DNA of 64,000 nucleotides from an uncultured Candidatus Rokubacteria bacterium. GTDB lineage: Bacteria; Methylomirabilota; Methylomirabilia; Rokubacteriales; CSP1-6. The stretch is taken from contig CAVXJS010000014.1 of assembly GCA_963762145.1 (NCBI GenBank), positions 256,001-320,000 on the forward strand. Direction: 5' to 3'. Shown piece after piece: positions 59,623 to 64,000 of this stretch. The translations under genes and the position numbers were made by a program. The notes beneath the pieces are model-generated. The model searched no databases, was not told the origin of the DNA, and saw only the letters and a program-made list of their open reading frames with translations. Position 1 is the first letter of the stretch, and each line of letters starts with the position of its first letter.

Positions 59623-60612
59623 ATGACGGGGGGCGCCATGACGGGCTTTCGATGGTCGCACCTGTTCTTCCTTCTCTCCACCTGGGTGGTGGTGTCGATC
59701 GTGGCCCTGCTGGTGGTCGGGCTGGCGTGGACGCTCCGGCTCAAGCCGCAGGCGCTCCGGGACGCGCGCGCCCAGCGCCAGGACATCGTCCGCGTGCTCG
59801 CGGGGCTGGCGGATGCCCAGGTGCGCGACAAGCTCGACGCCCTCGGCCCGCTCGCCGTCCACTTCGCGCAGGGCTGGGCCGCGCGCGAGCCGCGCGCGCT
59901 GCAGCGCGAGATCGACACGATCCGGGCGATGCTGCAGATGCCGACTCTCTTCGTGGTGTCGCCCGACGGCCGGCCGCTCGCGTTCAGTCCGCTCACCGGG
60001 CCGGACGGCACATCCAACCTCGATCTGCGCTACGCGGACCGGCCCCTCCTGCAGGAGGCCATTCGCCTCCAGGGGCCCGCGGTGTCCGGCATCATCTTCG
60101 GCCGGGCCTCGCGCGATTTCATCGTGGGCGCCGCGGTGCCGATCAAGGTGAACGAGCAGATCGTCGCCTATCTGATCGGCAGCATCCGGCTGCAGGGATC
60201 CATCGAGGCCATCGAGCAGGCCGGGCCCGGGGGCTGGCTGATCATGATCGACGCGGGGAAGCAGGCGATCTACCTGGACCGGAAGACGCGCCAGCTCACG
60301 CAGGAGGACTGGAAGAACCATCCATTCGTCGCCGAGCTGAGCCGCCGCCAGTCCGACGGCCTCGTCGCGCTGGGCGAGGACGACGAATGGCTGCTCACCA
60401 AGGCGGTGATGCCCACCCTCAAGGTGGATCTGGTCTTCGCCGCCTCGGTACGCCAGATTCTGGAGAGCCAGCGGGCGGTGCTGCTGACCCTGGTGGCCGC
60501 CCTCCTCGTCTCGGTGGCCATGAGCCTGGCCGTGAGCACGGTGACCGCCCTCCGCTTCGTACGGGAGCAGGAGGCGGCCGCGCTCAAGATGCGCGTGGGA
60601 ACGGGGGGTTAG
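59623..60612 (+). CDS. Membrane protein with an extracytoplasmic dCache-like domain and no cytoplasmic output domain
   Basis: TM1, LFVVSPDG, YADRPLLQEA, VSGIIFGR, AVPI, TM2, then about 20 aa to the stop. Confidence 0.7.
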   Translation: MTGGAMTGFRWSHLFFLLSTWVVVSIVALLVVGLAWTLRLKPQALRDARAQRQDIVRVLAGLADAQVRDKLDALGPLAVHFAQGWAAREPRALQREIDTIRAMLQMPTLFVVSPDGRPLAFSPLTGPDGTSNLDLRYADRPLLQEAIRLQGPAVSGIIFGRASRDFIVGAAVPIKVNEQIVAYLIGSIRLQGSIEAIEQAGPGGWLIMIDAGKQAIYLDRKTRQLTQEDWKNHPFVAELSRRQSDGLVALGEDDEWLLTKAVMPTLKVDLVFAASVRQILESQRAVLLTLVAALLVSVAMSLAVSTVTALRFVREQEAAALKMRVGTGG

Positions 60613-60628
60613 CGCGCCTCCGGGGGAA

Positions 60629-60661
60629 GCCGTTTCACACCCGGCCGGCGGCGGTGTCTCA
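60629..60661 (+). promoter_or_regulatory. Putative ECF-sigma promoter, copy 1 (autoregulatory)
   Basis: GCCGTTTCACACC-N9-GCGGTGTCTCA; both blocks and the spacing recur exactly at 62182. Confidence 0.7.
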
Positions 60662-60672
60662 TGGGCAGAGTG

Positions 60673-61200
60673 ATGGCAGAGGACGCGTTCGAGGCGGTGG
60701 TGGGGGCCCACCACGCGGAGATCCGGCGCTACCTGCTGCGGATCACGGCGCGCGGAAGCGACGCCGACGATCTCTCGCAGGAGACCTTTCTCCGCGCGTT
60801 CCGGGCGTACCGCGCCCTGGCGCCCGGCTCGAACGTGCGCGCGTGGCTCTTCACGATCGCCACGAACCTCGGGCGCAATCACTTCCGGGCCCAGGGGCGC
60901 CGGCGCCGGGCCTATGCGGCGGCGGCCCTCGAGATGAGGCCCGACGCGCCGGACCGGGCCGACGGCCAGGCGCTGGCCGACGAGGCGCGCGGGCGGCTGG
61001 AGCGGGCGATCGGGGAGCTGCCCGGCAAGCAGCGGCTGGCGTTCATCATGAGGAAAATGCACGAGCTCGAATACGCGGAGATCGGGGCGAGCCTGTCCTG
61101 CTCGGAGGAGAGCGCCCGCGCCCACGTCTTCCAGGCCCTCCGCAAGGTGCGGCGCAGCCTCGACGGTCATCTTCCGCTCGGAATGGAGTCCCGGTCATGA
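60673..61200 (+). CDS. ECF-family RNA polymerase sigma factor
   Basis: Region 2 DADDLSQETFLRAF...RAWLFTIA.N; region 4 LPGKQRLAF...YAEIGASL; start is 60670/60673, since the ATG at 60661 overlaps the promoter motif. Confidence 0.92.
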   Translation: MAEDAFEAVVGAHHAEIRRYLLRITARGSDADDLSQETFLRAFRAYRALAPGSNVRAWLFTIATNLGRNHFRAQGRRRRAYAAAALEMRPDAPDRADGQALADEARGRLERAIGELPGKQRLAFIMRKMHELEYAEIGASLSCSEESARAHVFQALRKVRRSLDGHLPLGMESRS

Positions 61201-62162
61201 GCCCTCAGCACCCCCTGTGCCGCGCCATCGAGCCGGACCTCCTGAGCGTCGCTGCGGGTGAGGCGGGATCCACCGCGGCGGGACGCGTGGAAGCGCACGT
61301 GGCCGGTTGCGGGCTCTGCCGGGACGAGCTCGCGCACTACCGGGCGCTCGAAGGCATGATGGGCACGCTGCGACGCGCCCCGCTCGAGGACGACGACGCG
61401 ACGCTCGCGCGCGCCCAGCTCGCCTCGCGCCTCTCGGACCTGCGCTCGCGCATGGTCGGCTTCGGGATCTTTCCGTCGCCGCTGGGGCGCATCCTCATCG
61501 GTCGCTCCGAGCAGGGCGTGGCCCTGGTACAGTACCTGCCCGCGGACGGATCGCTGTCCGCGCACGTGCGGCGGCTCCTGGGCGAGGACGCGGTCGAGGA
61601 CCGCGCGGCGACCGAGGCGCTGCGGGCGGAGCTGGTGGAGTATCTCGAGGGCCGGCGCGCGCGGCTCGACTGGCCGCTCGACCTGCGCCGGATGCGGAGC
61701 GAGTTCCAGCGGCGCGTGCTCGAGGCGACGGCCGCGCTGCCCTACGGTGCGGTCACCTCGTACGCGGGCATCGCCGCCCGCATCGGGGCACCCTCCGCGG
61801 TGCGCCCGGTCGCGCAGGCGCTGCGCTGGAACCCGCTGCCGATCGTCATCCCGTGCCACCGGGTGATTGGCGGCTCCGGCGCGCTCACCGGCTACGCGGG
61901 CCGGCGCGTGGAGCTCAAGCAGCGTCTGCTCGCGGTCGAGGGCGTGAAGACGGTCGCGACGCGGAACGACTTCAAGGTGGACCGCGAGGCCATGTACACG
62001 ATGGTCACCGGGGACAGCGAGTACTGCGTGCCCACCTGCGGCTCGCTCCTCTCCCGGCCGTTGTCCGCGCTCACGCTGTTCGGCACGCGGGAGGGCGCCG
62101 AGGCCGCCGGCTTCGAGCCCTGCACGAGCTGCCGGCCCGATCTGCACCCCCTCCCCGCCTAG
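61197..62162 (+). CDS. Fusion: ZAS anti-sigma domain + O6-alkylguanine-DNA alkyltransferase (Ogt) + Ada-type zinc domain (321 aa)
   Basis: C8-x25-H34-x3-C38-x2-C41; FQRRV, PYG...SY..IA, NPLPIVIPCHRVI (C220); C277-x3-C281-x27-GFEPC309-x2-C312RP; ATGA overlap with the sigma stop. Confidence 0.88.
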   Translation: MSPQHPLCRAIEPDLLSVAAGEAGSTAAGRVEAHVAGCGLCRDELAHYRALEGMMGTLRRAPLEDDDATLARAQLASRLSDLRSRMVGFGIFPSPLGRILIGRSEQGVALVQYLPADGSLSAHVRRLLGEDAVEDRAATEALRAELVEYLEGRRARLDWPLDLRRMRSEFQRRVLEATAALPYGAVTSYAGIAARIGAPSAVRPVAQALRWNPLPIVIPCHRVIGGSGALTGYAGRRVELKQRLLAVEGVKTVATRNDFKVDREAMYTMVTGDSEYCVPTCGSLLSRPLSALTLFGTREGAEAAGFEPCTSCRPDLHPLPA

Positions 62163-62181
62163 CCCGCCCGCGACGTCCTCC

Positions 62182-62214
62182 GCCGTTTCACACCGTCTCG
62201 CTCGCGGTGTCTCA
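62182..62214 (+). promoter_or_regulatory. Putative ECF-sigma promoter, copy 2
   Basis: GCCGTTTCACACC-N9-GCGGTGTCTCA, followed by AAGGAGG and ATG 62237. Confidence 0.7.
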
Positions 62215-62236
62215 ACGTGCGAAGGAGGACAGAACG

Positions 62237-62641
62237 ATGAGCTCGGAGACGGAGATCACGATCATGATTGTGCTGGTTCCCTTCCTCGCGGTCTGGGCGT
62301 TGCTCGCGCTGAGCCGCCGCGTCCAGCGGCGCCGCGAGGAGCGGGTGGTCCGGCAGATCGCCCTGACCGACGCCATCCACGGCGAGCTGGGCGCCGTCGC
62401 GGCCCCGGACGTGACGCGGAGCTTCGCCGGCGAGTGGACGGTCTCGATGCGCCTGCCGCTCCATCACGAGGGCATGGTGGGCGCGATCACGCGCCTCACG
62501 CAGGATCTCTTCCGCCGCCTCGACCGGCAGGATCCGCCGCGGCTGCGCCTGGTCCTGATCCCGCAGACGGTTCGGCCGTGGCGGCGGGACCGGGTGGTGG
62601 GCGTTTCCCGCGAGGCGGGGCGCCTCGACCGCGCGGCCTGA
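62237..62641 (+). CDS. Hypothetical protein with an N-terminal membrane anchor (134 aa)
   Basis: RBS AAGGAGG; ITIMIVLVPFLAVWALLAL followed by a basic stretch. Confidence 0.7.
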   Translation: MSSETEITIMIVLVPFLAVWALLALSRRVQRRREERVVRQIALTDAIHGELGAVAAPDVTRSFAGEWTVSMRLPLHHEGMVGAITRLTQDLFRRLDRQDPPRLRLVLIPQTVRPWRRDRVVGVSREAGRLDRAA

Positions 62642-62662
62642 GCGCAGAAGAGGAGAGCGGGC

Positions 62663-62878
62663 ATGGACATCAATACCTACGCCCTCGAGAAGATCGCCAA
62701 CGGGCGGCTCACCGAGCTCCGCGCCGCCGGCGCGCGGGTGGCCCTGATCGAATCGGCCCGGATCGGCCCCCGCGGGGTGGGGGTCGCGGTCGGATCCGCC
62801 CTCATCCGGCTCGGACACTGGCTGGCGCCCGCGGAGGAGGCGGCGGCGCCGAATGCAGGAGTGCGAGTCGCCCGCTGA
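62663..62878 (+). CDS. Small hypothetical protein (71 aa)
   Basis: RBS GAGGAG; amphipathic GSALIRLGHWL. Confidence 0.65.
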   Translation: MDINTYALEKIANGRLTELRAAGARVALIESARIGPRGVGVAVGSALIRLGHWLAPAEEAAAPNAGVRVAR

Positions 62879-62917
62879 AATAGTATGCTTGCCCCCAGGC
62901 CGGGGAGGGCCGGGGCC

Positions 62918-63787
62918 ATGGCGGGAACATTCGATCGGCGGGAGCAGGATCTGGGCAACATCGTGCTGCTGGAGCACGTCAACGTGCGGGTGCCGGATCA
63001 GCACGCGGCCACCCTGTTCTACATCGCCGGGCTCGGGCTGACGCGCGATCCCTACCTGATGGTGAGCGTGGAGAACATGTGGGCCAACGCGGGGCAGACC
63101 CAGTTCCACCTGCCGACCGGCGCGCCGAACGTGCTCCAGGGGCACGTGGAGATCGTGGTGCCGGATCTCGACGCGCTGATGCGGCGGCTGGCCGCAGTGC
63201 GCGAGCCGCTCGCGGGCACCCGGTTCGCCTACGAGATGCGCGACAAGCACGTGGCGGTGACGTGTCCGTGGGGCAACCAGTTCCGCTGCGTAGGCCCCGC
63301 CGCCGAGTACGGTGACATGACGCTCGGCATCTCACGGGTCGAGGTCCCGGTGGCGCGCGGCGCCGCCGCGGGCATCGTGTCCTTCTACAAGACCGCGCTC
63401 GGGGCCACCGCCTCCGTGAGCCAGGACGACGTCGGCCAGGCCGCGCGTATCAGCGTCGGCAACCGGCAGGAGATGGTGTTCCGGGAGACCGACGCCCCGA
63501 TCGCGCCCTACGACGGCCATCATGTCGCGGTCTACATCTCGGACTTCTCGGGCCCGCACGCGTGGCTGGTGGAGCACGGGCTCCTGTCCGAGGAGAGCAA
63601 TCCGTACCAGTATCGCTTCCAGGTCATTACCGACCCGGAGAGCGGCAAGAAGCTCTCGGAGATCGAGCACGAGGTGCGCTGCGTGACCCATCCCATGTAC
63701 ATGCGCCCGCTGATCAACCGCAACGCGGCCCAGCGTCAGGCCACCTACGTACGGGGGCGGGACGCTTTCGTCCCCGGGCTGCTCTAG
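62918..63787 (+). CDS. VOC/glyoxalase-like hypothetical protein
   Basis: LEHVNVRVPD..AATLFY..GLGL, QFHLP, CPWGNQF, HHVAVY. Confidence 0.7.
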   Translation: MAGTFDRREQDLGNIVLLEHVNVRVPDQHAATLFYIAGLGLTRDPYLMVSVENMWANAGQTQFHLPTGAPNVLQGHVEIVVPDLDALMRRLAAVREPLAGTRFAYEMRDKHVAVTCPWGNQFRCVGPAAEYGDMTLGISRVEVPVARGAAAGIVSFYKTALGATASVSQDDVGQAARISVGNRQEMVFRETDAPIAPYDGHHVAVYISDFSGPHAWLVEHGLLSEESNPYQYRFQVITDPESGKKLSEIEHEVRCVTHPMYMRPLINRNAAQRQATYVRGRDAFVPGLL

Positions 63788-63812
63788 GACAGCTCCGGGG
63801 CGCCGAGGAGGA

Positions 63813-64000
63813 ATGCGTATGCTCGCTGACCGCTACGTCAAGACTCTGCTCACCGTGATCGCGCTGGCGCTGGTGGCCATTGCCGCGCACCTGTGGCAGG
63901 GCCAGCTCCGGCCGGCCGCGGTGGACGCTCAGCCGGTCGCCAAGTACGGCGAGGTCGGTCTCCCCAAGGCGTGGGGCAAGCTCGTCGGCTTCTCGAACAA
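63813..64000 (+). CDS. Hypothetical exported protein (3' part runs off the window)
   Basis: RBS GAGGAGG; MRMLADRYVKTLLTVIALALVAIA... Confidence 0.6.
   Translation, partial: MRMLADRYVKTLLTVIALALVAIAAHLWQGQLRPAAVDAQPVAKYGEVGLPKAWGKLVGFSN

Follow-up and report, generated by a model that had tools for sequence, protein, structure and literature searches.

A candidate alkylation-triggered ECF sigma factor system in Rokubacteria with a ZAS-Ogt-Ada fusion as putative anti-sigma factor

Described systems closest to the locus

The window analysed here is a 64,000-nucleotide (nt) stretch of DNA from an uncultured Candidatus Rokubacteria bacterium (GenBank assembly GCA_963762145.1, contig CAVXJS010000014.1, positions 256,001 to 320,000, forward strand). 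It encodes a sigma factor of the extracytoplasmic function (ECF) type and, overlapping it, a fusion protein of 321 amino acids (aa). With moderate confidence, the two are read here as a sigma factor and its anti-sigma factor, the latter being a soluble protein that combines a zinc anti-sigma (ZAS) domain, a suicide O6-alkylguanine-DNA alkyltransferase (Ogt) and an Ada-like Cys4 zinc module, and being triggered by alkylation. The closest described counterparts are Ada of Escherichia coli, ChrR of Rhodobacter sphaeroides, RsrA of Streptomyces and the ECF122 group of sigma factors.

Escherichia coli Ada has both self-alkylating modules in common with the fusion. The four zinc cysteines of the two proteins align, and the fusion alkyltransferase matches Ada-C (1sfe). 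Their logic may also be alike: in both, a repair protein that alkylates itself irreversibly could thereby turn on repair genes, its own among them. In contrast with Ada, the fusion has the reversed domain order, no AraC-type helix-turn-helix (HTH) and a zinc module without net positive charge, and it would act by setting a sigma factor free, not by binding a promoter directly. Like the fusion, ChrR and RsrA are soluble proteins that begin with an H-x3-C-x2-C domain of four helices, which in the fusion are predicted; their genes follow an autoregulated ECF sigma gene and are co-transcribed with it, as would be the case for the fusion. The sensor part differs: it is a cupin domain in ChrR and the zinc site alone in RsrA, whereas in the fusion this place would be taken by a suicide repair enzyme and an Ada-like module.

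An excerpt of a 2022 review (PMC8999054) counts ECF122 among the groups ‘without cognate anti-sigma factors’ and of ‘unknown mechanism’; it mentions conserved 6-O-methylguanine DNA methyltransferases nearby, gives an actinobacterial example from Cellulomonas and cites Casas-Pastor 2021. As far as this excerpt goes, ECF122 is like the window pair, an ECF sigma factor with an adjoining O6-methylguanine-DNA methyltransferase gene (PMC8999054). Its example in the excerpt is actinobacterial, and at a branch with 97/99 support the window sigma factor shares one side with the Ogt-coupled sigma factor of the actinobacterium Iamia. The excerpt lists ECF122 without a cognate anti-sigma factor, whereas the Ogt partner in the window has a recognisable ZAS domain and an extra Ada-type module. 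The trait ascribed to ECF122, an O6-methylguanine methyltransferase next to the sigma factor, is found at 29/30 loci of the order to which the host belongs, in 20/20 members of the clade in Chloroflexota, in Iamia and in Limnocylindria, and the Ogt-coupled ECF clade is probably ECF122.

The main texts of Casas-Pastor 2021 and of its preprint contain neither ‘ECF122’ nor ‘methylguanine’; the group descriptions lie in the supplements and may bear on novelty. In a literature search that covered papers outside these supplementary ECF group descriptions, none was found on an anti-sigma factor fused to Ogt or Ada. An earlier note on this DNA, made from the sequence alone, knew of no characterised system with such a three-domain anti-sigma factor. 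As to a published fusion with Ogt or Ada, that impression holds, but that ECF122 pairs with O6-methylguanine methyltransferases has been published before, according to the review excerpt (PMC8999054). What is new is the ZAS-Ogt-Ada fusion; the ECF-Ogt pairing itself is catalogued but unexplained.

The gene pair and its distribution

The features that make up the system are the following.
60632..60661, + strand: putative promoter P1, GTTTCAC (-35-like), 17 nt, GTCTCA (-10-like), within the 60 nt of intergenic space that precede the sigma gene
60673..61200, + strand: ECF sigma factor, 175 aa, sigma2 and sigma4 domains only (Pfam, NCBIfam)
61197..62162, + strand: fusion open reading frame (ORF), 321 aa
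61197..61451, + strand: putative four-helix ZAS domain, fusion residues 1-85, with C8, H34, C38 and C41 (zf-HC2, PDB profile)
61464..61946, + strand: O6-alkylguanine-DNA alkyltransferase, both lobes, fusion residues 90-250 (Pfam, Foldseek, invariant residues)
61974..62141, + strand: Ada-type Cys4 zinc module, fusion residues 260-315, poor in basic residues (Pfam, HMMER, Foldseek)

With 175 residues and sigma2 and sigma4 as its only domains, the first protein is an ECF (group 4 sigma-70) factor, matched by Sigma70_r2 (60.5 bits) and Sigma70_r4_2 (48.3 bits) in Pfam and by sigma70-ECF TIGR02937 (90.4 bits) in NCBIfam. The start of the fusion gene overlaps the sigma stop codon as ATGA, an overlap kept in 22/26 orthologous loci. 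In 29/30 loci the sigma gene stands immediately 5′ of the fusion gene, and the 30th locus is cut by a contig end; the survey of ECF adjacency that the earlier note called for thus bears out the coupling. That note had given the sigma gene (60673-61200), the ATGA, the 321-aa length of the fusion, the residues C8/H34/C38/C41 and C220 and the C-terminal C-x3-C-x27-C-x2-C (C277/C281/C309/C312) exactly. It was also right that the fusion has no transmembrane segment (top 19-residue hydropathy mean 1.10 versus 2.74 for a membrane protein encoded downstream) and that it is built of three domains, a ZAS domain, an Ogt and an Ada-type module, as judged from Pfam domains and from motif residues invariant in 36/36 aligned proteins. 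Of the three-domain proteins in this alignment, 30 come from the order and six are distant metagenome representatives, with identities down to 32%.

The host assembly amounts to 6.26 Mb in 25 contigs and is 88% complete. The window has a G+C content of 70%, and its nearest named protein relatives belong to Methylomirabilota or Rokubacteria. The host is described as a soil bacterium. A homologue search with the fusion gave 2883 relatives at E <= 0.001 among 8000 candidates scored. The best 120 are mostly 319-331 aa long and 64-97% identical, and the organisms named among them are Rokubacteria/Methylomirabilota plus one Dormibacteraeota. In the phylum, 84 full-length copies occur in 82/151 genomes, a count that takes in three genomes flagged unpublished (G058, G029 and G101). 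All these genomes belong to the window's own order, bar one from another family in the class; among the 151 genomes, the other orders gave matches of Ogt length or of Ogt-plus-Ada only, and no full-length fusion.

That the fusion might be an artefact of assembly, a possible refutation named in the earlier note, is rejected: besides the 84 copies in 82/151 genomes, contigs from independent soil studies bridge every domain junction. The sigma/fusion overlap and the ZAS-to-Ogt junction are spanned by record 11 of run X13 (61042-61545) and record 28 of run X7 (61125-61445), and the Ogt-to-Ada-module junction by record 5 of run X10 (61475-62154) and record 14 of run X13 (61817-62682). Contigs of an RNA library (run X15) cover parts of the sigma, Ogt and membrane-protein genes and are uninformative on transcription, starts and levels.

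Proposed mechanism

Through the overlap of their genes, sigma factor and inhibitor would be made together, plausibly in similar amounts, and the ZAS domain would hold the sigma factor. While repairing alkylated DNA, the inhibitor would irreversibly alkylate its own C220 and possibly C277. The alkylated inhibitor would then change shape or be degraded, and the sigma factor would be let go; proteins of the O6-alkylguanine-DNA alkyltransferase (AGT) fold are destabilised when alkylated. Free sigma factor would read TTTCAC-N17-GTCTCA promoters, with its own operon, the adjoining downstream operon, a DinB-like plus Ogt operon and a few detoxification-type genes as targets. Transcription of its own operon would bring amplification and also fresh inhibitor for a reset. 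In its strictest form, to which we give about an even chance, the proposal says that the suicide repair enzyme is itself the anti-sigma factor: each lesion repaired would use up one inhibitor and free one sigma factor, transcription would count lesions, and co-translated inhibitor would reset the system.

The sigma clade and its constant partner

The sigma tree comprises 44 sequences: 11 of the order's 25, spanning its diversity, all 30 matches from Chloroflexota, one each from Iamia and Limnocylindria, and a paralog from the host genome. One branch with 97/99 support, in a tree rooted at its midpoint only, has all 33 Ogt-coupled sigma factors on one side (11 from this order, 20 from Chloroflexota, one from Iamia and one from Limnocylindria) and 10 sigma factors with other partners plus the paralog on the other. 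The Chloroflexota matches were found at E <= 1e-22 in 28 of 301 genomes, and in 20 of the 30 an Ogt gene follows directly 3′ of the sigma gene. Two of these 20 Ogt partners have a ZAS domain, 17 have an extension of ~40 residues and one is frameshifted. Partners from Chloroflexota and Actinomycetota share with the window pair the sigma clade, the Ogt at position +1 and a similar motif (TCAC, 17-18 nt, GT(C/T)). Unlike the fusion, most of them carry a ~40-residue N-terminal extension without zinc ligands and have no Ada-type module. Because the branch unites Ogt-coupled sigma factors across phyla, Ogt appears to be the constant partner and ZAS the variable part; a clade that keeps Ogt across phyla while ZAS comes and goes is the strongest argument for the alkyltransferase, rather than the zinc site, as the sensor. 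The ZAS-Ogt-Ada fusion, for its part, argues that the Ogt partner is the anti-sigma factor.

These data bear most directly on the main rival explanation, in which the zinc site is the sensor, as in RsrA: an electrophile or oxidant would attack C8, C38 or C41, zinc would be lost and the sigma factor freed, with the Ogt and Ada-like modules as repair cargo. This explanation, which we consider unlikely, agrees with the invariance of the ZAS ligands, with a C-to-H spacing that we take to be that of RsrA, with the loss of basic residues from the Ada-like module and with a regulon in which proteins of the DinB superfamily and the glyoxalase fold, typical of thiol-linked detoxification, abound. It is harder to square with the pairing of the same sigma clade with a ZAS-less Ogt at 18/20 Chloroflexota loci and in Iamia. 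Furthermore, the catalytic and Cys4 residues are invariant in 36/36 proteins, a degree of conservation that cargo would hardly seem to require, and many ZAS proteins are not redox sensors.

The wider family was surveyed among the best 150 representatives of an exhaustive search. It holds six clean cases of ZAS, Ogt and Ada module, at least 13 proteins of ~245 aa with ZAS and Ogt, and a third architecture in which a non-ZAS N-terminus precedes Ogt and Ada module. The three-domain form was located in a single order of Methylomirabilota and among a small number of metagenome proteins. A profile of the two-domain alignment matched the generic Ogt motif, at 80 loci or more, mostly plain Ogt genes; the informative loci are L102, L087 and L096. 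Related loci also encode PF09859 (259-264 bits), an ‘oxygenase for damaged DNA’ with a predicted role in repair.

The host genome also contains a second, divergent module (contig C13, L004:648-2618) with an ECF sigma factor 29% identical to that of the window, an Ogt-plus-Ada protein and PF09859 (264 bits). The Ogt-plus-Ada protein of the paralog is 242-251 aa long and lacks the ZAS ligands. The same sigma-Ogt-oxygenase order is seen at the Iamia locus (L096).

The alkyltransferase domain

Both lobes of the alkyltransferase are recognised by Pfam, as Methyltransf_1N (residues 90-163, 23.8 bits against a cut-off of 21) and DNA_binding_1 (residues 169-250, 97.1 bits). The acceptor, C220, lies in a PCHR motif and is encoded at 61854-61856. 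Residues N212, P219-C220-H221-R222, Y233 and E248 are invariant in the alignment; N212 is presumably the Asn hinge, and Y233 and E248 the active-site Tyr and Glu, as mapped onto the human residue numbers. The middle of the structural model was matched by Foldseek to whole Ogt and Ada-C structures, with a template-modelling score on the target of 0.85-0.90, and the C-lobe is ~45-50% identical to Ogt of Mycobacterium tuberculosis. Judged by these sequence and fold comparisons, the alkyltransferase domain is complete and its acceptor site intact.

Such a domain is difficult to reconcile with a ChrR-like scheme, in which the anti-sigma factor would be removed by regulated proteolysis or by a signal unrelated to alkyl transfer and the Ogt and Ada parts would serve as DNA docking or scaffold. 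ChrR is indeed among the PDB profile hits of the N-terminus, anti-sigma factors of the ChrR type have an N-terminal ZAS domain and a C-terminal domain needed for the response, and one relative has PSHR in place of PCHR. Nevertheless, none of the 36 aligned proteins departs from PCHR, from the Asn hinge or from the Tyr and Glu of the catalytic network, and further Ogt genes belong to the regulon. We regard this scheme as quite improbable.

The N-terminal domain

The ZAS ligands C8, H34, C38 and C41, with H34 and C38 separated by three residues and C38 and C41 by two, are invariant in 36/36 three-domain proteins, and 16 aligned two-domain (ZAS plus Ogt) relatives likewise keep H, C and C without exception. 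Lack of conservation in homologs, which the earlier note had set as a refutation, is not what is seen. The orthologous N-termini match zf-HC2 at E <= 1 in 30/30 cases, with a best E of 4.2e-8. When an N-terminal profile is compared with all PDB sequences, six of the top seven hits align across H-x3-C-x2-C, and four of these are named anti-sigma factors (DdvA, RsiW and ChrR, the last twice); hit 3hug_B is, we assume, RslA of M. tuberculosis, and the sixth aligned hit is a CHAT-domain protein. DdvA, RsiW, ChrR and 3hug_B have E values of 0.03-0.3. The full-length model of the fusion, a confident one (pLDDT 84.9, pTM 0.70), predicts N-terminal helices at residues 6-19, 25-35, 39-60 and 66-83. The anti-sigma fold is tentatively assigned from these sequence profiles and predicted helices, and the N-terminus would be an anti-sigma domain that binds the sigma factor.

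That the N-terminus is no anti-sigma domain, and the repair enzyme merely co-expressed with a sigma factor controlled otherwise, for instance by transcription alone, is very improbable. In its favour are a window zf-HC2 score under the Pfam cut-off and the filing of ECF122 as ‘no cognate anti-sigma, unknown mechanism’ in the review excerpt (PMC8999054); against it are zf-HC2 matches in 30/30 orthologs, the PDB profile hits, the predicted four-helix N-terminus and an ATGA coupling in the classic anti-sigma position.

The Ada-type zinc module

The C-terminal module has the form C277-x3-C281-x27-C309-x2-C312, with all four cysteines invariant in the alignment. Pfam matches residues 260-315 to Ada_Zn_binding with 31.9 bits (cut-off 23). 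HMMER aligns residues 258-316 with residues 20-76 of E. coli N-Ada so that all four zinc-ligand cysteines are matched; these are presumably C38, C42, C69 and C72 in the numbering of the E. coli protein. The tail of the model matches the N-Ada structure 1u8b in Foldseek with probability 0.99. Pfam gives no HTH_18 or AraC match in the fusion and the acceptor domains stand in reversed order, both as read from the sequence in the earlier note. Transfer from phosphotriesters to N-Ada is generally regarded as signalling, not repair.

Elsewhere in the host (contig C14, L006:67-1866), a canonical-looking Ada module is followed by AraC-type-HTH-like and AlkA-like sequence, as read from the sequence. 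Other alkyltransferase-type genes of the host (L007, L001 and L005), also read from the sequence, comprise a truncated-looking Ada-zinc ORF, a plain Ogt and a protein with PWHR in place of PCHR.

Promoter motif and regulon

Further features follow the fusion gene.
62185..62214, + strand: putative promoter P2, same motif as P1, 23 nt past the fusion stop codon
62237..62641, + strand: 134-aa protein with one N-terminal membrane helix (hydropathy 2.74), after P2, downstream in 27/30 loci
62663..62878, + strand: 71-aa ORF, probably in the P2 operon, 21-nt gap from the preceding gene, no Pfam hit, 14/30 loci
62885..63787, + strand: 300-aa glyoxalase/bleomycin-resistance-fold protein (Pfam Glyoxalase 24.6 bits), 6-nt gap from the preceding ORF

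The motif GTTTCAC-N14-20-GTCT occurs twice in the window (60632 and 62185) against 0.03 expected. The -10-like word of P1 overlaps the ATG at 60661, so a start of the sigma gene at 60673 is likelier, with a very short leader of a few bases. Across the 30 loci, TTTCAC-N14-GG(T/G)GTC is found at 56 sites with identical spacing in 56/56. It lies 5′ of the sigma gene, at fixed spacing, in 25/26 loci, and <=140 nt after the fusion stop codon in 24/30. As expected of an ECF system, the sigma factor would be autoregulated from a conserved two-block putative promoter. No sigma-70 promoters or intrinsic terminators were found at 60400-64000.

In the host genome, exact motif sites number four in 6.26 Mb against ~1.2 expected by composition. 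A weight matrix built on the 56 sites finds six genomic sites at 24-42 bits, with the next best at 14. Nine genomes of the genus have 3-6 sites each, 42 in total, against 0 for the reversed pattern. The motif precedes a DinB-like gene (DUF1706 / MDMPI_N / DinB_2) followed by a stand-alone Ogt in 9/9 of these genomes. Further genes behind sites encode SRPBCC (5/9), DUF2652 (4/9) and ABM-like (2/9) proteins, and Ogt directly, an arginase-family protein and a DinB_2 protein are targets in one genome each; Pfam was run on one representative of each target, and the others were assigned by visibly similar N-termini. Two weaker sites in the host genome precede MFS-like and DinB_2-like ORFs, read from the sequence alone. 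The ‘mini-regulon’ of the earlier note is thus real as a motif, and its theme of DNA alkylation finds an echo in the DinB-like plus Ogt operon, which carries the same motif in all nine genomes of the genus. The regulon fits an alkylation or electrophile response.

In the host itself, the Ogt after the DinB-like gene (contig C11, L002/L127, ~1250-1812 of L002) is split over two frames. It is intact in relatives, for example at L153:680-1258, and the host copy is a pseudogene or an assembly error.

Two genes had been proposed downstream of the fusion. A second putative promoter would indeed drive a downstream operon; in the genus, however, three genes are suggested, since the gaps between them are tight (21 and 6 nt). 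The glyoxalase-fold gene, probably the last of the P2 operon in the genus, is present in 9/30 loci, all of the genus, short flanks limiting the count. The 134-aa protein has no Pfam family. All of its named homologs are called ‘hypothetical protein’ bar one other automatic annotation, and they come from Rokubacteria/Methylomirabilota and one Gemmatimonadales metagenome-assembled genome. It carries a conserved ARQIALTDAI..ELGA stretch. Just upstream of P1, a 329-aa ORF with an N-terminal hydrophobic helix (59623-60612) is found in 9/30 loci, in the genus only, and has no Pfam or NCBIfam match.

In Chloroflexota, CTCAC-N17-CGTT precedes 15/20 Ogt-coupled sigma genes (L165, L167, L168, L171 and 11 more). 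Between its end and the beginning of the sigma match lie 12-34 nt, in most cases 13-16, and there is one other site in 137 kb. Leaders thus seem to be short, and the promoter type seems akin to the Methylomirabilota motif. A strict regular expression shared by both phyla matches 5/20 Chloroflexota loci, one of them inside the gene. At L102, L087, L096 and the paralog, the Methylomirabilota motif in its exact form is absent.

Weighing the proposal

Several observations weigh against an alkylation-triggered anti-sigma factor. Most regulon genes (DinB-like, SRPBCC, glyoxalase-fold, ABM-like and MFS-like) would suit a general electrophile response equally. The window's own zf-HC2 match, at residues 8-42, scores 14.9 bits (17.8 for the isolated domain) against a Pfam cut-off of 22.2, so that of the Pfam domains expected in the earlier note, DNA_binding_1 and Ada_Zn_binding are found but zf-HC2 stays under its cut-off. 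The PDB hits of the N-terminal profile are individually weak (E 0.03-0.4). A metagenome representative outside the 36 aligned proteins (P0125, 323 aa, 50% identical) has PSHR for PCHR while keeping the ZAS and Cys4 residues; this is either a natural form without catalytic activity or an error of sequencing. The host has a canonical Ada_Zn-type ORF with AlkA-like features, as read from its sequence, so that an adaptive response can be explained without the fusion system.

The charge of the Cys4 region is a further point of this kind. Its mean net charge over 30 orthologs is -0.4 (range -3 to +2), versus +4 and +5 for two canonical Ada modules and +6 for the paralog in the same genome, and the Arg/Lys residues that stand beside the zinc cysteines in E. 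coli align to V, G, L, E, T and S in the fusion. The basic surface with which modules of the N-Ada type hold the DNA backbone is lacking, and the Ada-like module may not engage DNA. The earlier note had equated the module with the methylphosphotriester site of N-Ada: the four cysteines and the Pfam match agree with this, but with the loss of net charge (-0.4 versus +4 and +5) the reading as a methylphosphotriester acceptor is weaker than first assumed.

Implications

If true, the proposed alkylation-triggered release would provide a mechanism for an ECF group catalogued in the literature as lacking one, and the fusion would show a cross-phylum system, that of the Ogt-coupled ECF clade, in its clearest form. 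The proposal also bears on the role of the Ada-type zinc module once its DNA-binding charge is gone. The system is compact, with a sigma factor, one soluble inhibitor, a short defined promoter and clear point mutants (C220, C277 and the ZAS ligands), which makes it directly testable and gives it a potential use as an orthogonal sensor of alkylation damage. In bacteria, it would represent a second, independent route from the irreversible self-alkylation of a repair protein to a transcriptional signal, and an Ada-like adaptive response built around a sigma factor in place of an AraC activator.

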